Positions 10,210 through 64,000 of a DNA stretch of 64,000 nucleotides are shown here, one piece after another. A program made the translations under genes and the position numbers. The notes under the pieces are model-generated. The model worked only from the letters and a program-made list of their open reading frames with translations, was not told where the DNA came from and searched no databases. The number at the start of each line of letters is the position of its first letter. Positions within the stretch are counted from its first letter, which is position 1. The stretch is from Candidatus Spechtbacterales bacterium (GTDB taxonomy: Bacteria > Patescibacteriota > Minisyncoccia > Spechtbacterales > 2-12-FULL-38-22): NCBI GenBank assembly GCA_040879145.1, contig JBBDKX010000036.1, positions 434-64,433 of the forward strand, written 5' to 3'.

Positions 10210-11883
10210 CTATATTCTCTCTGCAAGATCGCGTGATACCTGCTCTAAAATAGCGCCGCTCATGTTAATAGCATCTTCAAAATTATTCACAACTCCGTCT
10301 AATTGAGCTTCGTAGACCTCATTTAGAATTTTCCCAAATTGGTGTCCCGGTTTCGCATTAAAGTGCTCTATTAAATGCCTTCCTTTAATTAGCGGGTCTG
10401 GTTTTTCATGTCCCACATTAAGTTCTTTAGCTCTTTGCAATAAAAAAACAGCGCCATCCTCACGCCATGCGTTAGTTGTTCCTCTGCCTTTAACATCTGC
10501 CTCCATCACCAAAACAAGCTCTTCAATACTTGCGGGTCCCAGCCGGCGAGCCAGGCGGTTAATAGTGGCGTCAGAAAGTTTTTTCTCCATAATATGCTCC
10601 TTGTTCATGGCCAAAAACATATGTTCCTGAATTAAAGGAAGCACGCGTGACTCTATCTCTTTGCCAAACTCCATTTTTGATAAAAATTTCTTTGCGGTTA
10701 AAACTCCCGCCTTCTCATGTCCGTGACTTATCCATCTTCCGTCTTTGTTTTCGGTAACATCCGGTTTGCCCACATCATGCAAAAGAGATGCAAGCATTAT
10801 TACAAGAGCATCATCTCCTTCCAATTTTTCTCTTGCTACTATGCTGGCGGCAACATCAGTCGTCATTTTTGTATGTATCCACACATCGCCTTCCGGATGC
10901 CACTCTTTTTCCTGCGGAGTACCCTCTAAAGCAGTAATTTGAGGGTGCAAAACTTTTAATGCGCCTGTTTGAAGCGCAACCTCCAACCCAACTGAAGGAC
11001 GCCTGCTTTTTAAAAGTAGTTTTTTCCACTCTTCTGTTATTCTTGCTGTGGGTAATTCTTTAAACTCATCTTCTTTGGTTATTTGTCGACACAGTTTAAG
11101 TGTTTCATCATTAACTTTAAATCCAAAACGAGCAGCAAATTGCGCCACACGCAAAACACGCAGAGGGTCGTCAATAAATGTTTTTGGATCTGTAGCGCGC
11201 AACACTCCTTTCGCAAGATCTTTGTGTCCGCCAAAACTATCTATTATTTCTCCTGTAAGCGGGTCCTGCGCAAGTGAATTTATTGTAAGGTCGCGCCTGC
11301 GCGCGGCCTCTTTTGGAGTAAGTCCGGGGTCGCCCTTTATTTCAAAACCCCTGTGCCCGTTTCCGTTTTTTGATTCGGTTCTTGGAATTGATATATCAAA
11401 TTCATCTTCGCCAAATTTTGCTTTTATAACACCAAAAGACCGACCCACAGTATCCATATGATCGGGGTTAATTTTTTCTAATATGCTCTCTATTTTGGAA
11501 AGTTCAACGCCGTATATTTCAATATCATAATCCTTACACTCTCTACCTAACAGCGCGTCTCTGACACCGCCACCCACCAAAAGAGCTCTCCCTCCTACCT
11601 GTTTTATTTCTTTTGCTAAACCTATAGCGGGCGTGGGAATATCTATAATACGCTCACCTTTCGCGGTAATTTTTTTCCACACACCTCCCCTTGCCTCAAA
11701 TACCCCAACCGGCCTCTCTTTCTCAAATACTTCCCTCATATCACCTTTATACGTAGCGAAAACAACCTGTCCGTTAACAGGGTCTATTAATTGCGTAATT
11801 GTAACACGCGTGCCTTTTGGCTGCCTTGCGCGCATTGTCAAAAACGGAGGTATGCTTTTGTAGATAGTTGGTTTACAAGTCAT
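10210..11883 (-). CDS. cca: CCA-adding tRNA nucleotidyltransferase with an HD domain and an ~85-aa N-terminal extension
   Basis: LLVGGGVRDALLG..DYDIE head motif, and a HD..HDVGK phosphohydrolase region. Confidence 0.85.
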   Translation of the reverse strand: MTCKPTIYKSIPPFLTMRARQPKGTRVTITQLIDPVNGQVVFATYKGDMREVFEKERPVGVFEARGGVWKKITAKGERIIDIPTPAIGLAKEIKQVGGRALLVGGGVRDALLGRECKDYDIEIYGVELSKIESILEKINPDHMDTVGRSFGVIKAKFGEDEFDISIPRTESKNGNGHRGFEIKGDPGLTPKEAARRRDLTINSLAQDPLTGEIIDSFGGHKDLAKGVLRATDPKTFIDDPLRVLRVAQFAARFGFKVNDETLKLCRQITKEDEFKELPTARITEEWKKLLLKSRRPSVGLEVALQTGALKVLHPQITALEGTPQEKEWHPEGDVWIHTKMTTDVAASIVAREKLEGDDALVIMLASLLHDVGKPDVTENKDGRWISHGHEKAGVLTAKKFLSKMEFGKEIESRVLPLIQEHMFLAMNKEHIMEKKLSDATINRLARRLGPASIEELVLVMEADVKGRGTTNAWREDGAVFLLQRAKELNVGHEKPDPLIKGRHLIEHFNAKPGHQFGKILNEVYEAQLDGVVNNFEDAINMSGAILEQVSRDLAERI

Positions 11884-11898
11884 GCTTTTTAAACTTAC

Positions 11899-11926
11899 TT
11901 AGCACCCTCTGAGGGTGCTAAGTAAG
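11899..11926. repeat. 28-bp hairpin-forming repeat (ttagcaccctctgagggtgctaag), left copy
   Basis: Near-palindrome; a second copy at 12503-12530 brackets the tRNA-like/ZnF segment. Confidence 0.7.
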
Positions 11927-12037
11927 ACAGAAATTATCCTCACCTGAGTCTCCACTGGGCATTGCCCATGGAGAGAGTGGAAACTCAGGTGAGGACAGGA
12001 GACAACACGATTAAACGTGTTGTCTCCTGTGTTGTCT

Positions 12038-12274
12038 TCAGTGCGAAAACGCGCTGAAGACGGACCGCAGAAACCTCTTCTTTTGGGGCTTCTCGGTCGG
12101 AGTGGGGGCAGTGGTGGAGGTGGAAACCGCAGCTGTCTTGTTGCGATTCTCCGCATTGCGCCGACGCTCGTTGCGACTGCCGCGGGTAACTCCACCACGG
12201 TCGTGATACACGGAATGAGTCTCCGCATATCGATTTGGAACGCGCTTCCCACATCCGGAAACATTGCACTTCAT
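12038..12274 (-). CDS. small Arg-rich protein with an N-terminal C2H2-like zinc finger (C3,C8,H20,H24)
   Basis: MKCNVSGCGKRVPNRYAETHSVYH (C-x4-C-x11-H-x3-H), preceded by the strong RBS aaggaggagcaaATG; lies within the GC-rich island. Confidence 0.4.
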   Translation of the reverse strand: MKCNVSGCGKRVPNRYAETHSVYHDRGGVTRGSRNERRRNAENRNKTAAVSTSTTAPTPTEKPQKKRFLRSVFSAFSH

Positions 12275-12344
12275 TTGCTCCTCCTTAAGGTACGTTTGAG
12301 GGACTTTCCCTCATATAAAAGCAAGTTTTTGATGCTTTTATTCG

Positions 12345-12420
12345 TGGCTGAACCGGGATTCGAACCCGGTATACTTTACCGCTTGAGGCGGAGTTTTCCA
12401 CACGTTGCCGTGCTCAGCCA
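12345..12420 (-). ncRNA. tRNA-like element (perfect 7-bp acceptor stem, perfect T-arm GGTTCGAATCC, degenerate D/anticodon arms; anticodon loop reads CCUCAAG, i.e. UCA)
   Basis: Reverse complement GGCTGAG...CCGGGTTCGAATCCCGGTTCAGCCA; a possible pseudo-tRNA or att-site remnant. Confidence 0.35.
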
Positions 12421-12502
12421 TGCGAGAGGCAGTTTACGACTTGCCCAGGTCGAAATATGCTACATGCCGTTCCTCCTTAGAAAACCTGCTCCTATGAACC
12501 CC

Positions 12503-12530
12503 TAGCACCCTCTGAGGGTGCTAAGAGTTC
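12503..12530. repeat. 28-bp hairpin-forming repeat, right copy (cctagcaccctctgagggtgctaaga)
   Basis: Same palindrome as at 11899-11926. Confidence 0.7.
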
Positions 12531-12573
12531 TTTTCGTGGAACGTGTTACCCTACCGACCTAGGGTTCGCCAAA

Positions 12574-12987
12574 TCAAATCATTGAATTGGCGTGCACCAT
12601 CCAGTTACGGATGGCTTGACCTGTCTGGGCCTCGTAGAAGCCCAGATGGCGGAAGACCGAGATCTTCCGACTCTCTCCCGTCTCGGGATCGGTCTCTTCG
12701 ACCGACTCCCGGCGGGAGAAGGCATACAGGACCTGTATGCTGTATGCCGCCAGCTCGTACTCGAGCTGCGGCATCAGGAAGGGCGCTCCGCCGATCATAA
12801 CGGCTTCGACACCTTCCTCTCGAGCGAGTGCGGCAAGCACCCTCGCTCGCTTTGACACCTCATCGGGTGTCGGTAGCTCCTCAAAAGTGAGAAGCTTCTG
12901 TACGAGCTCCTTGTTCTGGGGCTCATACGCCCCCGCCTCCACCTGCTCAGGCGAGGCGGCGTGCTGGGTTAAATTGAGGATGAACAT
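12574..12987 (-). CDS. hypothetical protein (137 aa) in the GC-rich island
   Basis: RBS ggagaaaggaaacaagATG; MFILNLTQHAASPEQ...VMIGGAPFLMP; the track ORF was trimmed to the RBS-supported Met. Confidence 0.5.
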   Translation of the reverse strand: MFILNLTQHAASPEQVEAGAYEPQNKELVQKLLTFEELPTPDEVSKRARVLAALAREEGVEAVMIGGAPFLMPQLEYELAAYSIQVLYAFSRRESVEETDPETGESRKISVFRHLGFYEAQTGQAIRNWMVHANSMI

Positions 12988-13024
12988 CTTGTTTCCTTTC
13001 TCCGTCCCGGGCATTTGCCTAGAA

Positions 13025-13219
13025 TCAGAACTTGAACCTTCTAGGAGCTTTGATTTCAACAACCATGCGAAGTGCACCAAGCACTCCGGCGATGGCCACG
13101 AAAACGGAAAGGTGCTTTAACATCCACGGGCATACAAATTTCAGAGACACGTACATAGCGCCTCCTGAAACTGCCGCTCCGGCGATGGCCACACCAACAA
13201 CGAACAATATGTTCTTCAT
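13025..13219 (-). CDS. small two-helix membrane protein (64 aa)
   Basis: Strong RBS aaaggaggaaataATG; hydrophobic AIAGAAVSGGA and VFVAIAGVLGAL segments. Confidence 0.45.
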   Translation of the reverse strand: MKNILFVVGVAIAGAAVSGGAMYVSLKFVCPWMLKHLSVFVAIAGVLGALRMVVEIKAPRRFKF

Positions 13220-13547
13220 TATTTCCTCCTTTAGGAAATTTTCTCCCGCTTACTCGTTATTCAGCGGAAAGTTTAAAGAGCTACGATGTTTGTTTAAACA
13301 CCGGGAATGAGTACTTCAACGCGCTGTGCTTGCTCAGTATAAAATATGCAACATTTACTTTTATCCTGAGTTTACCGAAGGACTCCTTCTCGAAGTTTAA
13401 TAAAAAGAACTCTTACGGGAAGAGTTCTTTTTATTATTGCCTCACTCCAGCCGAAGCCAGGGTGGGTAATAGTTGCGAATAAATCGCAGCGCTGTGATTT
13501 AAAACTCTCTCCAAAGTTTTATTCTATTTTAAAGGTGAGTTTGTTTA

Positions 13548-14030
13548 AAAACTCATAATGAGAGGGACAAGCCTTTATAAAATATATTTGCCTCCCTCTC
13601 CTTATAAATTTTTAAACTGATTTTAAGAACTCAGAATGAGAGGGCAAAGCGTGTTGTATAACTTTTTGCCTCCCTCTCCTTCCGAATGCTTAAACCTATT
13701 GTTCACTATTTACTGCTAACTGATTTTGTGAGGTACTGATAGCGAGAGAGTCAAGGTATGTAGTATTACTTTTGACCTACTCTCTCCCTATCAATATCTC
13801 AATTTTTACTTTTCATTCTATATTTACATTATAACATGCTTTAAATTATTTGTCAAGGGTTTTTAGTGATTTTGTAAAAATTTATGACAAAAAACTTTTT
13901 TCACTTTCCTTTAAGAACATCGCCATTATATCATACAACAAAAAATCTGTCAACCCCAATCGACAAAAAATTTAAATTTTTGTGAGGGGTTAAAAGCTTT
14001 TTTGACATTATTTTACCACCCCTCTCCTTT
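13548..14030. repeat. array of about 4 imperfect hairpin repeat units (gagaggga...tccctctcc core) in a ~1-kb non-coding AT-rich region
   Basis: Units at ~13548-13610, 13627-13690, 13738-13800 and 13982-14030; the first two are tandem with a ~78-bp period. Confidence 0.5.
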
Positions 14031-14087
14031 TTCCAGTAAACGGCAAAATAAAAAAACTGCCTATCGGCAATTTAAAATTTATCTAAA

Positions 14088-14286
14088 GGATTTCTGGTAT
14101 TAATTTTATTCCGTCGTAAGCGGGAATGAGAGAGCTTTGTGCAAATACCCGAAGCGAGTAGAAAAACGGCTCTGCCGCGAGGCCTATCCCGAAGGGTAGC
14201 TGGCGTTTTTCGTAAACGAGCGAGGTTGTCCCGCATTTCTTGAAGCGAACGAATGGCAGCGTGGAATAAAATTATACCAGAAATCC
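14088..14286. ncRNA. structured element with ends pairing (24-bp terminal inverted repeat) around a GC-rich core; copy 1 of 2
   Basis: Shares the core ttttattccgtcgtaagc...gggaatgagRgagctttgtgcaaatacccgaagc...gcgaacgaatggcagc..gtggaataaaat with 57396-57652; the outer stems differ but stay complementary in each copy. Confidence 0.4.
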
Positions 14287-14287
14287 T

Positions 14288-15307
14288 TTACTTCTTTTTT
14301 CTACCTATCACCATTTTAGATCGTTTTACTATATGCTCAACATCCATTTCAAAAACCCCAAAAAGCTCATCCGGTTCGCCACTCTCTCCAAACCTGTCCC
14401 TCGTTCCTATAAACTCCTGGGGCACAGGATAATGCTGGCTTAAATATTCACTTACCGCCGAACCCATGCCTCCTAAAATATTATGCTCTTCCGCTGTTAC
14501 TATAGCTCCTGTTTTTCTAACAGACGCCTCAATGGTCTCACCATCCAACGGCTTTATTGTATGACTGTTTATAACTTCCGCCTTGATCCCCTCCTCCTCT
14601 AATTCTTTAGCAGCTAATAGGGCTTTATAAACTAAAGGCCCGCATGCAACGATAGTTACATCTTTGCCTTCTGTAATTACATATGCCTTGCCTACCTCAA
14701 ACGGAGTTTTTTCTGTAGTGAACACAGCATAATTCGCGCGTCCAAGGCGCAGATAAGCAGGGCCGGGGCGTTCTGCCAGTTCCATGGTCGCTCTCTTTGC
14801 TTCATGTACATCCGCGGGAGCCACAACTGTCATACCCGGATGTGTCCTCATTAAAGCAATGTCTTCAAGCGCCTGATGTGTCGCGCCGTCAGGGCCTACA
14901 GAAATTCCCGCGTGAGAGCCCACAACTTTTACATTTATTTCTTTACTCTCTTCAGCTCCCCAGCTATTATAACTTATTGTTGTCCGTATCTGCTCATTGT
15001 TGCGCCCGGGAGAAAACACGGCATAAGACGACATAAAAACAATCTTTCCCGCGGCTGCCATTCCACTGGCAATAGTAGCGAGATTTTGTTCCGCCACTCC
15101 AAGCTCTACAAATCTTTCGGGGAATTTTTCGGCGAAAAAATGAGTGTTTGTGCTTTCTGTAAGATCGGCGCACAAAGCAACGATTTTCTCGTTTTTCTCC
15201 CCAGCTTCAAGCAGACCCTTTCCATAGCCGGCACGGGTTTTAGCCTTTTCTATTTTATCCACATCAAAAAGATTTGATACTAATTTTAGCTTTTTATTTA
15301 TTTTCAT
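14288..15307 (-). CDS. tkt: transketolase, C-terminal (pyrimidine-binding / C-terminal domain) subunit of a split enzyme
   Basis: Tkt central/C-terminal domain sequence; pairs with the N-terminal subunit just upstream. Confidence 0.88.
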   Translation of the reverse strand: MKINKKLKLVSNLFDVDKIEKAKTRAGYGKGLLEAGEKNEKIVALCADLTESTNTHFFAEKFPERFVELGVAEQNLATIASGMAAAGKIVFMSSYAVFSPGRNNEQIRTTISYNSWGAEESKEINVKVVGSHAGISVGPDGATHQALEDIALMRTHPGMTVVAPADVHEAKRATMELAERPGPAYLRLGRANYAVFTTEKTPFEVGKAYVITEGKDVTIVACGPLVYKALLAAKELEEEGIKAEVINSHTIKPLDGETIEASVRKTGAIVTAEEHNILGGMGSAVSEYLSQHYPVPQEFIGTRDRFGESGEPDELFGVFEMDVEHIVKRSKMVIGRKKK

Positions 15308-15509: not shown

Positions 15510-16379
15510 TTATTGGTGTTCGCTTTCAATTTTACCTCCTAATGTGCGTAGGTCTTCTAAAGCTTCCTTCAATTCTTCCTTCGTTCCCGGAGGCTTGCCG
15601 TGCCACTCAAATTTATTCTCCATAAACTCAACTCCATATCCGGGAATTGTATTTGCAATTATCATAACAGGTTTCTCCTGTATAGCTTCGGCCTCGCGAC
15701 ATGCTTCCACAATATCAAGTATACTGTGGCCGTTTATCTCAATTACATGCCAACCGAAACTTTCGTATTTATGGTCCAAAGGTTCAAGTGGCATTATATC
15801 CTCTGTGTTGCCGTCTATTTGGATATTATTGCGATCCATAATCGCGGTTAAATTGCTTAGGTGGTATTTCGAGGCAAACATGGCACTTTCCCATGTATTA
15901 CCCGCATCCTGCTCTCCGTCGCTTACAAGGCAGTATGTTCGCCATGGTTTACCATCCATTTTTGCGGCGAGAGCCATTCCCGCCGCCTGTCCAAGACCGC
16001 TACCAAGCGGACCGCTTGTAGTTTCCAAACCAGGCAATGCTCCCCTGTGCGGGTGACCTTGCAAACGGGTGCCTAACTTGCGCAAAGTTTTAAGTTCTGT
16101 TCGTGGAAAATACCCCGCGTGTGCAAGAGTTACATACTGTACGGGGCAAATATGTCCATTGGAAAGTATAAGGCGATCTCTGTCTTCCCAGTCAGGGTTT
16201 TTAGAGTCATGGTCTAAAACATGAAAATACATGGCCGTAAAAACATCGGCCATGCCTAAAGGGCCGGCGCTGTGTCCGCTCCCTGCCTCAAAAAGCATCT
16301 CTAAAATGTCTTTTCTGATTGCATTGGCTTTTTTCTCCAAAGCCCTCTGTTTTTCTGAACTAATACTTAAAATCGGCAT
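15510..16379 (-). CDS. tkt: transketolase, N-terminal TPP-binding subunit
   Basis: GHSAGPLGMA...SNGH..DGEQDAGNTWE TPP-binding motifs. Confidence 0.88.
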   Translation of the reverse strand: MPILSISSEKQRALEKKANAIRKDILEMLFEAGSGHSAGPLGMADVFTAMYFHVLDHDSKNPDWEDRDRLILSNGHICPVQYVTLAHAGYFPRTELKTLRKLGTRLQGHPHRGALPGLETTSGPLGSGLGQAAGMALAAKMDGKPWRTYCLVSDGEQDAGNTWESAMFASKYHLSNLTAIMDRNNIQIDGNTEDIMPLEPLDHKYESFGWHVIEINGHSILDIVEACREAEAIQEKPVMIIANTIPGYGVEFMENKFEWHGKPPGTKEELKEALEDLRTLGGKIESEHQ

Positions 16380-16546: not shown

Positions 16547-17212
16547 TCACGAAACACTCTCTTGTAATTCTTCTATTGCCTTCTTCGGGTCGTTGCTGTT
16601 CCAGATGTATGAACCGCTCACTATCGCGTTCGCTCCCGCCTCAACCGCCTGTTTTGCGGTTTCGGGATTCATTCCCCCGTCTACCTCTATTGTAAGCTTT
16701 GGGTACTCTTGACGTAAAGTGGAAATCTTGACCAAACTTGCTTCCGCGTTAAAACTTCCTCCATAATATCCGAGACTTCCCGCAAAAATTAAAACAGCAT
16801 CTACATCATTTAAAAACTCGTCTAAAACAGTTATTGGTGTTTCGGGCAAAATAGCTATGCCCGCCTCTTTTCCCGCGTCTTTTATTTTTTTAATAATTTC
16901 GGCGTGTTGGGATGTAGCTTCGTAATGAAAGTAAATCCGCGCAACTCCCGAATCCTTTTCTTCAGAGTTCCCCGTTATCCAGGCATCTATTACATTTTCG
17001 GGTTCCGCCACCATTAAATGCGCTTCAATGAATACACCCGGGTCAATATCGTGCAAGGCAACAGGATCGCCCCAGGTTTTATTAGGCGCGAAATCGCCGT
17101 CAGCCGCATCCAAATGCATCCAGCCCACATAATTTTCAACAGCCCTTATTTTTTCCTCAACCTCTTTCTGAGTACGGACGGTTATCGAAGGTATTATTTC
17201 TATGTTTGTCAT
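16547..17212 (-). CDS. rpe: ribulose-phosphate 3-epimerase
   Basis: HLDAADGDFAPN..HLMV..IEVDGG..GSYIW pattern of Rpe. Confidence 0.85.
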   Translation of the reverse strand: MTNIEIIPSITVRTQKEVEEKIRAVENYVGWMHLDAADGDFAPNKTWGDPVALHDIDPGVFIEAHLMVAEPENVIDAWITGNSEEKDSGVARIYFHYEATSQHAEIIKKIKDAGKEAGIAILPETPITVLDEFLNDVDAVLIFAGSLGYYGGSFNAEASLVKISTLRQEYPKLTIEVDGGMNPETAKQAVEAGANAIVSGSYIWNSNDPKKAIEELQESVS

Positions 17213-26743: not shown

Positions 26744-26861
26744 GCGTTAACCCTTTGCCTTTCTGTTTTGCTTAAAGAAACCTACAATAATATATACTTT
26801 TTATTATATTATGTCAAGGTTTAAAATAAAAAAGACCTGTATTTTACAGGTCTTTTAAAGA

Positions 26862-27197
26862 TCATAAATACTGTCCCATGCCTTCGTCTTCTTCCTGTTG
26901 TGAAGTTTGATTGCCGTGCTCACCCCGTTCTCTATAAAACATGCCTGCATACTGCTCCTGCGCGCGAGCTATCTCATTTTGAAGTAATATGCGGCCGGTT
27001 TGAAACCCGGTATTATACCCGGACTCATATCCGGCCTCATGTCCGTCAGTATGGCCTGCTTCGTAAGCGGATGAGTTTATAATTACCAAAACATCCTTTT
27101 CTGACACGCCCTGCTTTCTAAGCCGGTCAAAACGTTTAAAAATATCGTTTGCAAGAATCTTGTTAGGGTCGTTGTCGTCTGAGACAGAAGTATCCAT
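26862..27197 (-). CDS. hypothetical acidic protein (111 aa)
   Basis: Intact ORF. Confidence 0.45.
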   Translation of the reverse strand: MDTSVSDDNDPNKILANDIFKRFDRLRKQGVSEKDVLVIINSSAYEAGHTDGHEAGYESGYNTGFQTGRILLQNEIARAQEQYAGMFYRERGEHGNQTSQQEEDEGMGQYL

Positions 27198-27314
27198 ACA
27201 AAAACCTCCTTTTGTTAATCATGTGCTAAGTTTATAATTATATTTTTGAAGAGATTTGTCAATAAAAAAATAGGCCCACAACTTACTTTAAATAAGTTGC
27301 GGGCCTCTTGGTAC

Positions 27315-27590
27315 TCACAGATACCCACCTTGGCTGGACAGTTCTGCCTGCGGTGGCTCGCTGGCGGGTCTTTGTCGTTGTTGCATCTGCTGGATGGCAA
27401 GAGCCATGCCCTGCTCTCTGCCTGCCTGCATATTAACCTCAGCAACTTTCTGAAGGTTCACACCTATCAGAAAAGACTTTTCTGCGATACTCTTTTGAAT
27501 ATTGGCCTGGGACAGCCCTTCAGCGAGCAATGCTGGCCGAAGGGCTTCAGCTGTTTCCAGAAAAATCTCCAGAATAGGATTGTTCATCAT
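27315..27590 (-). CDS. hypothetical small protein (91 aa) with a strong RBS, GC-rich
   Basis: aaaggaggaaaatgATG. Confidence 0.5.
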   Translation of the reverse strand: MMNNPILEIFLETAEALRPALLAEGLSQANIQKSIAEKSFLIGVNLQKVAEVNMQAGREQGMALAIQQMQQRQRPASEPPQAELSSQGGYL

Positions 27591-27647
27591 TTTCCTCCTT
27601 TCTATGATAGAGCCCCGGGTTCCAAAGAACCCGGGGCCGGTTGGTGC

Positions 27648-27785
27648 TTAGGATTCCTTGTCCTTGGAATCCTGCTTCTTCTTGTCGGCCTTCTTGTCGG
27701 CGCGACGTCGCTTGTTGGTGGGGTTGGGCGGTCCGCAGACCGGCCCGTCGCACCCACAACGACCACCAATGACCTTTTGAGCCAT
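27648..27785 (-). CDS. 45-aa Cys-rich basic peptide (MAQKVIGGRCGCDGPVCGPPNPTNKRRRADKKADKKKQDSKDKES); not in the ORF track (under 60 aa)
   Basis: RBS aaaggaaagaaATG; followed by a perfect 11-bp GC hairpin (27612-27640). Confidence 0.35.
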   Translation of the reverse strand: MAQKVIGGRCGCDGPVCGPPNPTNKRRRADKKADKKKQDSKDKES

Positions 27786-27828
27786 TTCTTTCCTTTCTTG
27801 CTTCACTAAAAGAGCGAAGCGGGTCTTG

Positions 27829-28029
27829 TTACTTCACAGGAATATGACTTACGTCAAATCCCTGAAGCTCGCACTGTTCGGCCTGCCAGCCGGTGATATA
27901 AAAGCCCGAGTATTCCTCAGACTGCTCTATCCACCGGACACATTCCGCTTCCTCCGCCCTGTTGACCCCCATGTGCAGCACAAGCCACACAAGCAGAAAA
28001 AACAGGAAAAACAGAATTGCATTTCGCAC
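27829..28029 (-). CDS. small secreted or membrane protein (66 aa), GTG start
   Basis: ggaggtagcactGTG; N-terminal hydrophobic ILFFLFFLLVWLVL. Confidence 0.4.
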   Translation of the reverse strand: MRNAILFFLFFLLVWLVLHMGVNRAEEAECVRWIEQSEEYSGFYITGWQAEQCELQGFDVSHIPVK

Positions 28030-28165
28030 AGTGCTACCTCCTTCAAGGTACTAACTGACAACATTATATCATACTTTATATAATTTGTCCAGTATTTCTG
28101 GCAAGGACTGTCCTTGCCAGAAAATATATTTCAAAAGTTGTCCAGCACTACCATGAGTCATTAAT

Positions 28166-28184
28166 ACACCGGTCTGACCGGTGT
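28166..28184. promoter_or_regulatory. palindrome ACACCGGTC-N-GACCGGTGT, copy 1 of 3; flanked on both sides by the palindrome ctggcaaggactgtccttgccag
   Basis: Other copies at 28719-28737 and 29351-29369, all intergenic within the small-gene island. Confidence 0.5.
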
Positions 28185-28228
28185 CTGGCAAGGACTGTCC
28201 TTGCCAGACATGCATGCGAGTAAACAAT

Positions 28229-28268
28229 AAAAAGCCCCCGCACTATCCAGCTGGAGTGTGGGGGCGAA
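28229..28268 (-). terminator. rho-independent terminator for the 28278-28616 gene
   Basis: Reverse complement gcccccacactccagctggatagtgcgggggc + ttttt. Confidence 0.6.
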
Positions 28269-28277
28269 TCCCGGATA

Positions 28278-28616
28278 TTATTCCGGGATTATGTCTGACT
28301 TTTTGCAATGTTCTATAAACTTTCGTACAGATTCTTCATACTTTTCCCTGCTAAAATTCGGCATATCTTTCCTAAGATGATAGGGAATATTGCCCTCTAT
28401 AGAAGGTATAACTACCCCACCTCTTTCAAACCTTCTGCGCTCGTTTTGCGGCAAATCCAAAAAAATATCTATATCTTTTTCGGTGTAACCTGTAATTCTG
28501 TATTCCCGCTCAGCACTTTGTACAGGATACGAACGAGAGGGATTTCTTCTAAAAAATTTCCTCAAAATTCTGTGCGCGCACTTTCTCTCATCTCTTCTAA
28601 AAAGACTCATCCGCAA
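28278..28616 (-). CDS. hypothetical basic protein (112 aa)
   Basis: Intact ORF. Confidence 0.5.
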   Translation of the reverse strand: MRMSLFRRDERKCAHRILRKFFRRNPSRSYPVQSAEREYRITGYTEKDIDIFLDLPQNERRRFERGGVVIPSIEGNIPYHLRKDMPNFSREKYEESVRKFIEHCKKSDIIPE

Positions 28617-28685
28617 CTCCTTTATTTATGAACTGCCAATATCATAACAAAAAACCAATCTTAGTCAACCAAATTTTAATATTAA

Positions 28686-28712
28686 ATGGGAAAACCGGTT
28701 TTCCCATTTAAT
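28686..28712. terminator. palindromic hairpin aaatgggaaaaccggttttcccattta (second copy at 40478-40504)
   Basis: Perfect stem; T-rich flanks. Confidence 0.5.
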
Positions 28713-28718
28713 TTTAAA

Positions 28719-28737
28719 ACACCGGTCTGACCGGTGT
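28719..28737. promoter_or_regulatory. palindrome ACACCGGTCTGACCGGTGT, copy 2
   Basis: Identical to copies 1 and 3. Confidence 0.5.
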
Positions 28738-28789
28738 AAAAAAAGCCCCGCACGTTGAAGTTTGGGGCTTCTTGTGCGGGGCTAAAGAG

Positions 28790-29224
28790 CTATGTAAGTG
28801 CGATTTTGGATCCGTTTGAAAGTATCCAGAATACAAAATCGTTTTCTGGGATTCCAATCTTAGCTCCAACTTCGCGGAGTCGCTTGTGAATCTTTTCCGG
28901 AACAGTGCCGGTTTGTGATTCCACGCCCAGAATCGCATTTACAAGATTCGCAAAAAGGTTGAGGGACGCTGCCTCCTCCTGCGTCATACCTACTTCAAGA
29001 CGTTTACTGACCAGAGTCCGCTTCAGTTCCCAAGCGGGACCTTCTTCCGTCTGACGATGGCGCGCGCCCAATCTCTCAAGAGCGCCTCTGATCTTTCGCT
29101 CTGCAGATGCTAAATTGCCCTCCAGCGATTCCACTTTACAGGAGTAGGATTCATGCAAATTGTTCCTGTTGTCAAGAACGTGATGTAGGTGACCCCATTC
29201 CTCAACGGTGAGTTGAATTTTCAT
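28790..29224 (-). CDS. hypothetical protein (144 aa), GC-rich
   Basis: RBS gaaaggaaaaagaATG; a terminator hairpin at 28740-28788 follows. Confidence 0.5.
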   Translation of the reverse strand: MKIQLTVEEWGHLHHVLDNRNNLHESYSCKVESLEGNLASAERKIRGALERLGARHRQTEEGPAWELKRTLVSKRLEVGMTQEEAASLNLFANLVNAILGVESQTGTVPEKIHKRLREVGAKIGIPENDFVFWILSNGSKIALT

Positions 29225-29350
29225 TCTTTTTCCTTTCTTCGGGTTTTGCAAATACTGCGAAAAGTATATCACAGTTAAACTAAAAAATCAAGTTTCAGTT
29301 TTAATTCTCGGCAATTTTTATATTTGGATGCAATTCTAAAAATCATTAAT

Positions 29351-29369
29351 ACACCGGTCTGACCGGTGT
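29351..29369. promoter_or_regulatory. palindrome ACACCGGTCTGACCGGTGT, copy 3
   Basis: Identical to the other copies. Confidence 0.5.
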
Positions 29370-29431
29370 ATAGCAAGGTCGGTACTTAAAAAAGATCTGC
29401 CGAAGCAACTACATCTTTCTCAAATACTGCC

Positions 29432-29510
29432 CTGTGTAACTATTTTTAATTTTGCTAACTTCTTGCGGTGTGCCTTGTGCTACGACATACCCGCCCTCAT
29501 CACCTCCTTC
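29432..29510 (-). repeat. orphan duplicate of the last ~78 bp of uvrA (encodes ...[10 protein letters not shown])
   Basis: 78/79 identical to 29889-29967 (the true uvrA 3' end); flanks the GIY-YIG insert. Confidence 0.85.
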
Positions 29511-29575
29511 CCGATTTTGTTCAAATCTACGATTTGACCCAAAATCGTGGATCCTCGATTTCTCAACAACAGTTG

Positions 29576-29821
29576 CTATTTTTTATTGATAAGCCGCTCA
29601 ATGGCAGCTCGACTTTTCCATCCTTTGATTTGCTTCTCTCTCCTGCGCGCCTCGCTAAGCGTTTTATACTCTTCTAAATGCACTAATTCCCAAGGCTGAG
29701 CTGTCTTAGTGGATTTAACACAACCTTGATTATGTCGCTCTAAGCGACCCAATATATCATTACAAGACCCGATGTAATAAATACCTTTATTTAAAGATTT
29801 AATAATATAAATATAGTACAT
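29576..29821 (-). CDS. small stand-alone GIY-YIG nuclease-domain protein (YhbQ/UPF0213-like)
   Basis: [30 protein letters not shown]...KGWKSR. Confidence 0.75.
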
Positions 29822-29854
29822 AGATAGCAACTGTTGGAGAAATCGGGACAGGCC

Positions 29855-60060: not shown

Positions 60061-60415
60061 GCGGTTGAAACACTGACCGCTTTCCCTCTGTGTTTGTAAA
60101 AACACAGAGGTATGACTATTAGTACTACTCAGCTTAACCCCTCTCAGGGCTTACACTTATAGCCTATCAACCTGTTAGTCTAACAGGAGTCTAAGAGCTC
60201 TAATCTTGAGGCGGGCTTCGTGCTTATATGCTTTCAGCACTTATCCCTTCCGAACATAGCTACCCAGCGATGCTCCTGGCGGAACAACTGGTACACCAGA
60301 GGTTCGTTCACTCCGGTCCTCTCGTACTAGGAGCGAGTCCCCTCAAAGCTCAAGCGCCCACGGAAGATAGGGACCAACCTGTCTTGCGACGGTCTGAACC
60401 CAGCTCGCGTAGCGT

Positions 60416-60451
<36 letters not shown>

Positions 60452-60481
60452 CCAGCCCCAGGATACGCCGAGCCGACATCG

Positions 60482-60872
60482 CTGTCGATTTTTCTCTTGT
60501 TGCCAAGAGGATCGGACTATATCTTCATCCTATTGCGGACTTTAGGCGTTCTTAGCCATAGCCTCGCTTTTTATAATAGGAGTCGGCGTGTTGTCCTTCA
60601 AATTTTTTCGAAGAACCTCCCCTTTCGGGTCAGTCTCTACGGGGTCATAACCCAATTTGTATTCCATAGATGGAATAATATGTGGTTTAACGATCTGCTT
60701 AAGCAATGGAATACTCGATTAACCACAGGTCTTTGAAATTGAGTTAGACTTCCCACGGTATTGTCCATACGTATATTCTACCATTATTTGGTAGCGCTAG
60801 TGCATGGAGTTCACCGTTATAAGCCGAATTGTTTTTGTATGAGATTACTCTCATAGGCACCCCGATATGTTA
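60482..60872 (-). ncRNA. probable group I intron (~391 nt, no ORF) inserted at 23S position ~2500 (E. coli numbering) in the peptidyl-transferase region
   Basis: Interrupts GGCACCU | CGAUGUCGGCUC; 5' exon ends in U, insert ends in G; IGS GGGGUGCC pairs with the exon GGCACCU; UAGUC P7-like element. Confidence 0.6.
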
Positions 60873-61492
60873 AGGTGCCGAACCTCCCCGTCGATGTGGA
60901 CTCTCGGGGGAGACCAGCCTGTTATCCCCGGGGTAACTTTTATCTGGTGATCTTCCTCTTTTCTATAAAAGAAGGTCGGTTCACTAAGTTCTGCTTTCGC
61001 AACTCTCTACTCCAGTAAACTGGAGTAGAGTCTGTTACTTCCCTGAGATTAAAATCACAGGGTTTTACAGAGCGCGGCTTATTTGCCTTGCAGTAAAGCT
61101 GGCTTGTGCCTTTACACTATCGCTCCGATTTCCATCCGGAGCTAGCCAACCTTAATAAACGCCTCCGCTACCATTTAGGAGGCAAGCGCCCCACTTAAAC
61201 TACCTACCATCCACTGTCCCGAATGTGTTTAGCATCCGGTTAGTCACAGTATTTTGAAAGATGGGTATTTCACTGGCGACTCCACACTGGCCGAAACCAG
61301 CGCTTCAAAGTCTCCCCACTATGCTACGCAGCCAAAACACTGCAACAATAGAAAGCTGTAGTAAAGCTCCCGGGGTCTTTCCGTCTATCCGCGGGTAACC
61401 GGCATCTTCACCGGTACTGCATTTTCACCGGGCTTCTCGTCGAGACAGTTGTCCAGTCGTTACGCCTTTCGTGCGGGACAGAACTTACCTGC

Positions 61493-61541
<49 letters not shown>

Positions 61542-62341
61542 CGGCGCTTGTATCACCAGCTTTCCAGCGAACTGGAAAACCAACAATACTTAACGTTCCG
61601 GCATTGGTCAGGCGTCACCCCCTATACATCCCCTTACGGGTTCGCAGGGAGCTGTGTTTTTGATAAACAGTCGCTAGACAGACTTTAGCTGCGCCCTATA
61701 TTGCTATAGGGAAGGCATATCCCTAAGTTACGCCTAGTTTTTTTGCCGAGTTCCTTGACGAGAACTCACCCGTTCGCCTTGGTATACTCTACCTGCCCAC
61801 CTGTGTCGGTTTGCGGTACGGATTCATATCTATTAACCTTAGAAGCTTTTCTCGGAAGGTTGCTGGGAGGAATAATCTCCATTACAGAGACTTTTCCCGA
61901 CGCTTAGAATTGCCTTACGGCCACCTGGGCATTTCTCCCAGGCATTCCTTACGCAAGGAACACAAATCCAATAACATGCTCCCCTTACTAACCTCCGTCA
62001 CTCCGTCGAATAAATATGAAGAGATGGAATATTAACCATCTGTCCATCCCCGTGACCCTTTCGGGCCCCGGGTTAGGGCCGCCTAACCCTTGGCTGATTG
62101 ACATTGCCAAGGAAACCTTGGGCTTTCGGCGTGGGGGTCTCTCACCCCCATTGCGGTTACTCATGCCAACATTCTCTCTTCCTGCCGCTCCACCATGCCT
62201 TACAGCACAGCTTCAGCGCAACAGAAATGCTCTCCTACCACACACTACCCAAAGGTAGTGCATCCACGTCTTCGGTAGTAAACTTTAGCCCCGTTAAATT
62301 TTCAGCGCAGAAACTCTCGACTAGTAAGCTGTTACGCACTT

Positions 62342-62374
<33 letters not shown>

Positions 62375-62878
62375 AGCTGTTTGTGAATTTCTACATCTTT
62401 TCCCACTTAGTTTACATTTAGGGACCTTAGACTGTGATCTGGGCTGTTTCCCTTTTGAACATGGAGCTTAGCCCCCATATTCTAACTTCCTGCTATGACT
62501 TGATAGAATTCGGAGTTTATCTGATCTTACTCAGCAAATGCCTCGCAAGACCAATTAGTGCTCTACCTCTACCAAGATAAGGCAGGAGCTAGCCCTAAAG
62601 CTATTTCGGAGAGAACCAGCTATTACCAGGCTCGATTAGCTTTTCACTGCGACCCACGGCTCATCCCCTCCTATTGCATCAGAAGTGGGTTCGGGCCTCC
62701 CCCCGGTCTTACCCGGGGTTCACCCTGGCCATGGGTAGATCGCCTGGCTTCGGGTCTATTGCGTGCTACTTTAATTCGCCGTATTAAGACTCGGTTTCCC
62801 TATGGCTTCGTTCGTTAAAGAACTTAGCCTGCAACACACAATAACTCGTTGGCTCATTCTGCAAAAGGCACTGCGTCA

Positions 62879-63013
62879 CCCCTCACATGGAATGAATCCT
62901 GCTTACATTTCACTAAAAAGTGATGATGTTTTTAGCATTATTTTAATTTAAGAATATTTCCTGAACTACGATTTTACCCGCAGGCCAAGAAATATTCATT
63001 CCATGTGAGGGGC
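62879..63013 (-). other. ~135-nt AT-rich expansion hairpin in 23S domain I (replaces the short E. coli hairpin ACGCTTAGGCGTG)
   Basis: cccctcacatggaatgaat ... attcattccatgtgagggg closing stem. Confidence 0.5.
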
Positions 63014-64000
63014 TCCGCATCCTTGTAGGCATATGGTTTCAGGTTCTATTTCACCGCCCTCACCGGGCTACTTTTCACCTTTCCCTCACGGTACTTGTTC
63101 GCTATCGATCACCAAAGATATTTAGCCTTACCCGATAGGTCGGGTAGATTCACCCGAGATGGACGTGTCTCGGGCTACTCAGGATACACAACCGGTAATC
63201 AAAACTTTTAAAATACGGGGCTTTTACCCTCTTTGGCCGCCCTTTCCAGGGTCATTTTTCTAAGTTCTTCATACGTTATGTCGTGTCCTACAACCCCATT
63301 TTGTGCAAGCACAAAATGGTTTGGGCTCCTCCCTCTTCGCTCGCCGCTACTAAGGGAATACGTGACCTAATGGTCTTTTGTATCTTTTCCTCCGCTTACT
63401 GAAATGTTTTACTTCAGCGGGTACGGTCTCCGGCATAAAGCCGGAGTACTGTGGGTTTGCCACAGTGGGTTTCCCCATTCGGAAATCTCCGGATCAAAGG
63501 TTGCTACGCACCTCCCCGAAGCTTATCGCAGCTACGCCACGTCCTTCATCCCTCTTTGGTGTCAAGGCATCCACCATATGCCCTTATAAAATGTTACAAC
63601 ACTCAACGGAATAAGTGTTGTAACTACGGTCAATGTAGATCTAACTCTGAGTCGTAAAGGAAGGGTCTAAAGACCCCCTACAAACCAAAGTTAGATAACC
63701 GCGGAATTATAAGACTCTCTTGTTAGTCCTCTATCTATCAAATAAAATCAAACTTGAAAGATAAAGGACAATTGTATTCCATATAAATATAGAATACGGA
63801 TAACTTTTTATGTCTTGTCGTTGTCCTCTAACTTTTCCTGTAAAGTTTTGAGGACATATGAATCTCATAGAAAGACCTACAAGATTATTTGACAAAGTTC
63901 AACAAAAAAGCCGCTCGCAAGCGACTGTCTGAGTGCGCGCAAATTGTGGCGCATTAGCCGCTTGTCTTAAATTTCTTTATTGAGCTTTTTTGCATACTCA

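Follow-up and report, generated by a model that had tools for sequence, protein, structure and literature searches.

A GC-rich islet with a Csx20-like gene, probably of mobile-element origin, in a hypervariable gap next to the transketolase genes of a Candidatus Spechtbacterales genome

We describe here a guanine-plus-cytosine (GC)-rich islet in a metagenome-assembled genome (MAG) of Candidatus Spechtbacterales (candidate phyla radiation [CPR]/Patescibacteria), with particular attention to one of its genes, which encodes a 137-amino-acid (aa) protein of the Csx20 family. All coordinates refer to the window, i.e., the whole 64-kb stretch of DNA that was analyzed, in which the islet occupies positions 11884 to 13300. 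Read along the minus strand, the order is tktN (16379-15510), tktC (15307-14288), about 1 kb of AT-rich noncoding DNA, the islet, cca (11883-10210), and a 331-aa open reading frame (ORF; 10161-9166) that is taken as pfkB from its alignment with the PfkB-annotated gene of L235, one of the relatives compared below. A first-pass annotation had placed the islet between cca and tkt, which Pfam confirmed for the flanking genes, and the features that it listed were all found at, or a few bases from, the positions it gave. The features of the islet and its surroundings are as follows.

10210-11883, minus strand: cca, a CCA-adding/poly(A) polymerase-type gene (Pfam)
11894-12030, strand unassigned: three near-perfect hairpins (11995-12030, 11937-11995, and 11894-11926), with a folding energy (dG) of -92.3 kcal/mol and z = -13.65
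12038-12274, minus strand: 78-aa basic ORF (ORF list) with a strong Shine-Dalgarno (SD) sequence and the pattern C3-x4-C8-x11-H20-x3-H24
12297-12341, minus strand: AU-rich stem with a U run (12341-12315), then a UGAGGGAAAGUCCCUCA hairpin (12313-12297); fold z = -4.1
12345-12419, minus strand: 75-nucleotide (nt) tRNA-like element in which the acceptor stem and T arm are intact and the D and anticodon arms are degenerate; fold z = -3.6
12460-12480, minus strand: AAGGAGG, a 6-nt spacer, and ATG-TAG (AAGGAGGAACGGC-ATG-TAG, with ATG-TAG at 12465-12460), read from the sequence
12496-12530, strand unassigned: hairpin H1, directly 3' of the Csx20-like gene and holding the 23-nt repeat 12503-12525 (inverted-repeat search)
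12574-12987, minus strand: gene for the 137-aa Csx20-family protein (Pfam PF27247, "MJ1673"; ORF, homologues, profiles, and AlphaFold2 [AF2] model)
13025-13219, minus strand: gene for a 64-aa protein with two hydrophobic helices, AAGGAGG at 13231-13225 (ORF; NCBI WDZ40_03990)
13296-13310, minus strand: upstream edge of the islet, the 3' half of a hairpin unit (ACTCATTCCCGGTG), beyond which similarity to L234 stops (comparison with L234)
13398-14031, minus strand: conserved noncoding locus with promoters, four ~57-nt hairpin units, and a terminator (promoter, repeat, and fold searches)
14288-15307 and 15510-16379, minus strand: split transketolase genes (Pfam)

The islet has a GC content of 52.6% (peak, 61%), compared with 41.6% for the whole window. 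In 300-nt windows, the values were 49 to 61% over 11900-13250 and 36 to 45% on either flank, and 12001-13000 was the only 1-kb bin above 50% in the window apart from rRNA, so that both sliding windows and bins confirmed the sharp rise that had been claimed. The proposed upstream boundary at 13300 likewise coincides with the point, at about 13296, where L234 diverges. An independent Logan contig reproduced window positions 17000 to 12293 at 100% identity, across the host/islet junction on the left, showing that this junction is not an assembly artifact. It is extremely improbable that the islet is an assembly chimera, a GC-rich fragment of another organism joined into the MAG contig: the sharp GC step, the metagenomic source, and a right junction present in the MAG alone would fit such an error, but the Logan assembly extends through the left junction, and the corresponding locus of a related MAG contains a homologous membrane gene, a tRNA-like element, and GC-rich cargo. 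Both islet edges carry the 7-mer TTTAAAC (11888-11894 and 13293-13299); it was dismissed as a target-site duplication because there are 31 copies in the window, on both strands, so that chance is the likely explanation.

The composition of the 137-aa gene departs strongly from that of its host. Its GC content at third codon positions (GC3) is 0.725 versus about 0.35 for the host, its positional GC periodicity is 0.65/0.39/0.73, and its host-codon score is -0.226 versus 0.093 ± 0.031 for the host, i.e., about 10 standard deviations off. This foreign codon composition shows that the gene was acquired; it is intact, the acquisition is recent, and related genomes do not have it at this locus.

The first-pass annotation had seen no evident homology to known systems, a statement that does not hold for the 137-aa protein. 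A total of 347 homologues were retrieved at an E value of ≤1e-3, with 50 to 65% identity, from CPR bacteria, Proteobacteria, Bacteroidota, and Archaea, and precomputed Pfam annotation assigned PF27247 (MJ1673) to the window protein (P0001) and to all 120 homologues among the matches listed. Every one of the 28 aligned family members matched the NCBIfam model NF040559 (CAS_Csx20) and three PADLOC Csx20 models, and no other model (best E value, 9.6e-10). The window protein scored 16.3 bits against NF040559 (E = 0.0096), where the curated cutoff is 70 bits, and is, judged by these profiles, a divergent relative of Csx20 and not an equivalog. It keeps 21 of the 21 invariant family residues (including N5, L6, T7, Q8, H9 ... 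G66, G67, A68 ... S91, R93, K108, and H114). Its AF2 model, with a predicted local distance difference test (pLDDT) score of 92.9, has a Rossmann-like alpha/beta fold, and the nearest structural matches in BFVD were uncharacterized viral proteins (template modeling [TM] scores of 0.77 to 0.82). A canonical Csx20 was shown biochemically to be a ring nuclease acting on cyclic tetra-adenylate (cA4), and Csx20 is present in a few phage genomes (bioRxiv 10.1101/2024.09.24.614671); phage csx20 homologues have been proposed as counterdefense genes (bioRxiv 10.64898/2026.07.27.740549), and the earliest mention of MJ1673 is as a small protein linked to type III-A systems (PMC3973734). Family membership suggests that the 137-aa protein is probably a cA4-binding ring nuclease of the phage/mobile-element type.

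The nearest kin of the protein (59 to 60% identity) are encoded on viral contigs of 56 to 65% GC, and IMG/VR yielded 202 confirmed matches to the Csx20-like family. Genome loci with Csx20-like genes numbered 68, including 24 from CPR (Saccharibacteria, Paceibacteria, and others), a share that may partly be bias, since the search patterns favor close kin of the query; the gene was also found in one cultured phage (RM378) and two plasmids. In CPR loci, Csx20-like genes typically lie 5 to 15 GC points above their surroundings. Neighbor clustering revealed no conserved neighbor, the best partner occurring in at most 7 of 151 related loci. The 64-aa ORF, the 78-aa ORF, and the noncoding parts gave no match in 152 Csx20-like loci (tblastn and blastn), and no two islet components were found together at any other locus examined. 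The picture of a compact module had to be given up on these grounds, no part of the islet accompanying the Csx20-like gene elsewhere. An association of the gene with type III CRISPR-Cas or a cA4-activated effector was not seen at the Pfam-scanned neighbors cca and tkt (pfkB stands next to cca by synteny).

The locus was compared through the TktC relatives L231, L234, L235/L236, L237, and L238; a comparison through Cca was uninformative, the closest metagenomic Cca being 48% identical and never adjoining tkt. In L238, tktC is directly followed by pfkB, and in L237 a gene for a 496-aa dockerin-type protein lies between the two. L235/L236 have a promoter, one hairpin unit, and a GC-rich noncoding stretch of ~650 nt with a terminal terminator, followed by other genes, and L231 has HAD and hydrolase genes, a hairpin array, a GC-rich noncoding stretch of ~500 nt, a membrane gene, orphan ORFs, and a tRNA-like element. 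The closest relative is L234 (TktC 90% identical). Its AT-rich region, at about 80% identity, is conserved to the same degree as the coding genes; the sequence departs right after CTCTCATTCCCGGTGTT (window position ~13296) into an unrelated ORF. This differing content across relatives shows the tktC-pfkB gap to be a hypervariable hot spot. The cargo ORFs of L231 and L234 matched no Pfam or PHROG family.

Two further observations were made in these relatives. GC-rich stretches (48 to 54%) of 500 to 650 nt without a called gene follow the hairpin units in L231 (4000-4500) and L235 (4450-5100); they may be structured RNAs or further foreign inserts, and neither they nor the window islet could be aligned with one another. 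The contig ends of L231, L232, L233 (window position 12293), and L234, which come from four independent assemblies, all fall inside the variable cargo downstream of tktC, which is consistent with strain-level heterogeneity.

The 64-aa protein has Kyte-Doolittle peaks at residues ~1 to 24 and 33 to 56 and a basic tail, and the GC3 of its ORF is 0.54. A search of 1.8 billion representatives returned just one homologue (P0122; 73 aa, 51% identity, E = 6e-10), the gene for which lies in the syntenic position, downstream of tkt, in MAG GCA_033721955.1 (L231/L232), where the tRNA-like element of L231 also lies. Their recurrence at the same locus in a related MAG indicates that the membrane gene and the tRNA-like element are resident features, and at least these parts of the islet appear to be older inhabitants of the hypervariable spot and not components of a mobile module. 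Wholesale acquisition of the islet is thereby contradicted: the foreign origin that had been proposed for all of it was upheld for the 137-aa gene, by its codons and its viral relatives, and fails for the 64-aa gene and the tRNA-like element.

The first-pass annotation had suggested a small-toxin cassette among other possibilities. With its pair of hydrophobic helices, its basic tail, and its strong SD sequence, the 64-aa protein could be a membrane toxin or holin-like effector under the control of its neighbors, but such a small-toxin or toxin-antitoxin cassette is highly improbable. The 64-aa protein matched no toxin family in PADLOC, Pfam, or PHROG, its homologue in L231 is followed by unrelated genes, the gene never occurs with the Csx20-like gene at other loci, and no antisense promoter or RNA was detected.

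SD sequences give a mixed picture. AAGGAGG precedes the 64-aa ORF, the 78-aa ORF, and the ATG-TAG site, but the 137-aa gene, for which a canonical SD sequence had also been claimed, has just GGAGAAAGGAAACAAG-ATG. Strong SD sequences are otherwise rare, as had been stated (AGGAGG precedes 1 of 40 host ORFs of at least 150 aa), yet AAGGAGG also occurs in a second islet at ~27200-28050. The ATG-TAG at 12460-12465 with its SD sequence is indeed present and is a candidate start-stop site or the stump of a truncated gene.

The tRNA shape claimed for 12345-12419 was supported by the computed fold, a four-way junction with a 7-bp acceptor stem and a T arm of CCGGG/UUCGAAU/CCCGG. A counterpart at L231:6033-6126 has the same T arm at 16 of 17 positions and the same 3' flank (GCCACGA), and three acceptor pairs differ on both sides between the two elements. 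ARAGORN called no tRNA at the window element with default settings and called neither a tRNA nor a tmRNA at the L231 counterpart, and Rfam matched neither element (for the window element, no RF00005 match at E < 5); at an 80% threshold, ARAGORN reported the window element as a mispaired tRNA-Arg(gcg). A functional or suppressor tRNA was rejected on these negative results, the reading of a UCA anticodon requiring a 3-bp stem with mismatches. The same applies to transfer-messenger RNA (tmRNA): the ARAGORN tmRNA search was negative, also when relaxed, and the third acceptor pair is C3-G and not G3:U70. A pattern of acceptor stem and T loop derived from the element had no match in JGI metagenome contigs, two exact stretches of it had none in viral contigs, and a looser T-arm pattern retrieved just ordinary phage tRNAs, mostly tRNA-Met, and a few uncalled relics. 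A descriptor scan of the collected loci showed no association of tRNA-like elements with Csx20-like genes.

The element is thus a tRNA-shaped minihelix and no decoding tRNA. Acceptor stem and T arm are the part of a tRNA that is recognized by RNase P, RNase Z, the CCA-adding enzyme, and tRNA-targeting integrases. Since the minihelix keeps exactly these parts, its most likely function, present or past, is to signal RNA processing or to serve as a target of recombination.

The 78-aa ORF is followed by 148 nt made up of the three near-perfect hairpins, the last of which, H1' (11894-11926), abuts the annotated start of cca. H1' holds a second copy of the repeat in H1: the 23 nt at 11900-11922 and 12503-12525 are identical, and two copies exist in the window versus 0.01 expected. 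A two-copy hairpin repeat around the tRNA-like element and the 78-aa ORF had been described, correctly as to the copies, although the exact stretch is 23 nt long and not 28; it had no match in viral contigs or the other collected loci.

These repeats could be scars resembling attL and attR, left by a single integrated element (a prophage or satellite) of which the islet would be the remnant and the tRNA-like element the decayed target. The exact direct repeat with two copies only in the window, the tRNA-derived element between the copies, the viral-type cargo, and the fact that contigs of three assemblies break within the region would all agree with this scenario, which is nonetheless unlikely. 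No integrase, excisionase, or other phage gene was found, and phage records hold no DNA match to the 1.4-kb islet. The tRNA-like sequence does not include the 23-nt repeat, and its 3' end has no duplicate anywhere in the window; the Csx20-like gene lies outside the segment bracketed by the repeats; and L231 has the tRNA-like element without them.

The 78-aa ORF had been described as a C2H2 zinc-finger gene. The ORF and its Cys/His pattern are present, but no profile match, homologue, or modeled finger was found: there was no family in Pfam (E < 1), PHROGs, NCBIfam, or PADLOC and no homologue among 5.8 billion proteins, and the exact sequence is missing from the protein collection in which the products of cca and the 64-aa gene appear under accession numbers two apart. 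A single-sequence AF2 model reached a pLDDT of 59 overall and 46 to 53 over residues 1 to 30, with no beta-beta-alpha finger. Three other long ORFs overlap it, and stop codons are depleted in several frames of 11884-12573. That the 78-aa ORF is a gene is doubtful, and the distal third of the islet (11884-12573) is best read as structured noncoding DNA or RNA. Rfam found nothing on the islet, at either gathering or E-value thresholds. The GAGGGAAAGTCCCTC hairpin reported between the 78-aa ORF and the tRNA-like element was found at 12298-12312; the GAGGGAAAGUCCCUC hairpin and similar strings in L231 and L235 superficially recall the P4 motif of RNase P, a candidate that was discarded, no RNase P model matching.

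Extending such a reading to the whole islet, as an ancestral structured-RNA region that owes its GC richness to RNA structure and holds its ORFs incidentally, is of very low probability. The very stable folds (z = -13.7), a tRNA-like element kept in a relative, GC-rich noncoding fillers at the same locus in L231 and L235, the depleted stop codons, and the unsupported 78-aa ORF all speak for it. However, there is no doubt that the 137-aa gene codes for a protein (347 homologues, GC3 periodicity, and a confident fold), it is missing from the locus of the relatives, and the 64-aa gene has a conserved protein homologue. An ancestral RNA region can therefore hold for the distal third alone, which is noncoding already in the mosaic reading set out below.

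The start of cca itself may need revision. Cca homologues align only from about residue 65 to 100 of the annotated 557-aa product, and the ORF has an internal ATG at 11739 (M49) with AAGGTGAT upstream of it. The true start may lie 144 nt downstream of the annotated one, which would add window positions 11740 to 11883 to the noncoding zone after the hairpins.

Upstream of the islet, the DNA at 13300-14290 had been taken for trailing noncoding DNA with hairpin repeats, but it holds a conserved locus with promoters and hairpin units. Two perfect sigma-70 promoters (TTGACA-17-TATAAT with an extended -10 element) lie on the minus strand at 13953-13925 and 13856-13828, hairpin units lie at 14031-13974, 13791-13734, 13683-13628, and 13605-13550 on the same strand, and a perfect terminator follows at 13436-13398. 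The units, arranged in tandem, share the consensus AAGGAGAGRG-AGG-YAAA...TTTR-CYCTCTCATT, which folds into two stems separated by a bulge and capped by a loop. The locus (13398-14031) has about 80% nucleotide identity to L234 and 69% to L231, and a covariance model of the units matched in L234, in L231, and, weakly, in L235/L236. Across the units, 87% of cells were paired versus 34 to 61% in slid controls, five pairs showed double changes, and none of 500 shuffles reached the covariation score. Rfam assigned no family to the AT-rich locus or to L231, L234, and L235. The position of the terminator implies that the promoters serve a separate noncoding RNA and not the ORFs of the islet.

Between this locus and tktC, at 14054-14290 on the minus strand, lies a 207-nt element with a closing stem of ~28 bp that starts at the tktC stop codon, a GC-rich core, and a fold z score of -4.7, followed by an intrinsic terminator at 14073-14054. 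It may be similar to a miniature inverted-repeat transposable element or may be a terminator structure of unusual length, and there is a resemblance between its 3' part (CTCTCTCATTCCCGC) and the 3' half of the hairpin units.

The arrangement calls to mind an integron-like or hairpin-mediated capture array, with promoter-driven, promoterless cassettes and hairpin units serving as attC-like sites. Consensus promoters lie upstream, the small ORFs share one orientation and each have an SD sequence of their own, hairpins follow every ORF, the units have a stem, bulge, second stem, and loop with covariation, and a different GC-rich filler follows them in each of four relatives. We nevertheless consider such an array very unlikely, since the strong terminator at 13436-13398 separates promoters and ORFs, and the units cluster upstream of the ORFs and not between them. 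No integrase was found among the three Pfam-scanned flanking genes, nor an integrase or other recombinase in the Pfam families recorded for the loci of the relatives. The attC boxes RYYYAAC/GTTRRRY were not seen by eye in H1, H1', or the leader units (no dedicated attC model was run), and H1 and H1' are perfect palindromes without extrahelical bases.

Elsewhere in the window, a second stretch of small ORFs (~66 to 160 aa) at 26750-29850 has AAGGAGG on the minus strand at 27211, 27600, and 28043 and GC bumps of 51 to 54% at 27350-27950 and 28850-29150, and may be another foreign islet. The 23S rRNA gene (60099-63597, minus strand) carries a group I intron at 60493-60884 (Rfam RF00028, 51.2 bits).

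Taken together, the islet is probably a mosaic of mobile-element (most likely phage) origin in the hypervariable tktC-pfkB gap and no coherent functional cassette. Several points weigh against this interpretation. Scored at 16 bits where Csx20 requires 70, the 137-aa protein could differ in activity; no cas genes were found among the Pfam-scanned flanking genes (a scan limited to cca and both tkt genes); the right junction (12293-11884) has the MAG assembly as its sole support; and the tRNA-like elements compared are two sequences, in which the universal T-arm motif could make unrelated relics look alike. In addition, the relatives compared do not exceed 90% nucleotide identity, so that no empty site is available to order the acquisitions.

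If the mosaic reading is correct and the gene is expressed, the 137-aa protein would bind cA4 with its predicted CARF-like Rossmann domain and linearize it. Linearization would switch off effectors activated by cyclic oligoadenylate (cOA) in type III CRISPR-type signaling, and the role of the protein would be anti-defense if the gene serves a mobile element, or that of an off-switch if it was co-opted by the host.

A more far-reaching and decidedly unlikely proposal is that the conserved unit next to tktC (promoters, covarying hairpins, and, further on, the tRNA-like minihelix) is a previously undescribed CPR-specific RNA locus or a DNA "landing pad" that collects unrelated GC-rich segments, and/or that the stand-alone Csx20-like clade has a role beyond CRISPR quenching. 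The unit would then be an integron-like capture system or a new, highly expressed structured noncoding RNA, without a recognizable recombinase, and the segments collected would be the Csx20-like islet here and the 500- to 650-nt noncoding fillers in the relatives.

Read as a mosaic, the islet itself is explained by ordinary horizontal acquisition, and its 137-aa protein adds to a known family. It offers a concrete case of a virus-type Csx20-family gene fixed in a CPR chromosome; if these proteins are ring nucleases, cOA signaling and its suppression would be important for how CPR bacteria interact with viruses or hosts. The conserved, unclassified hairpin array beside the hot spot is a candidate for a new RNA motif.

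Among known systems, integron cassette arrays and clusters of attC sites lacking integrases (CALINs) share with the locus a strong upstream promoter, short same-strand ORFs followed by hairpins, and a content that varies between relatives, but here no intI was found among the scanned genes, no attC R'/R'' boxes were seen by eye, and a terminator stands between promoters and ORFs. The minihelix resembles tRNA-like RNAs and relics (tRNA-gene att sites, the tmRNA domain, YrlA, and mascRNA) in having an acceptor stem and a canonical T arm (GGUUCGAAUCC) but lacking a functional anticodon arm; unlike tmRNA, it has no G3:U70 pair, tag ORF, or pseudoknots, and unlike tRNA-gene att sites, it has no duplicated 3' half. 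Phage "morons" or accessory genes and islets at hot spots likewise consist of a foreign single gene with its own translation signals between core genes, at a site whose content differs from relative to relative, whereas here there is no mobility gene or clear target-site duplication, and part of the islet is common to relatives.

In comparison with Csx20, the 137-aa protein falls below the equivalog cutoff, has non-cas genes as its Pfam-scanned neighbors, and is part of a branch of stand-alone proteins encoded mainly on viral contigs and in CPR genomes. It agrees with Csx20 in its single domain, the length of ~120 to 140 aa, and the matches of 28 of 28 members to Csx20 models, and its predicted alpha/beta fold may be of the same Rossmann/CARF-like type. 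AcrIII-1/Crn2 (DUF1874) belongs to an unrelated fold family, and the 137-aa protein had no sequence or structural match to DUF1874. The resemblance lies in what these genes are and where they occur: both are small viral stand-alone accessory genes for the degradation of cOA (predicted here) against type III CRISPR signaling, and the distribution of the Csx20-like gene, with 202 viral contigs and no fixed neighbors, is like that of AcrIII-1/Crn2.

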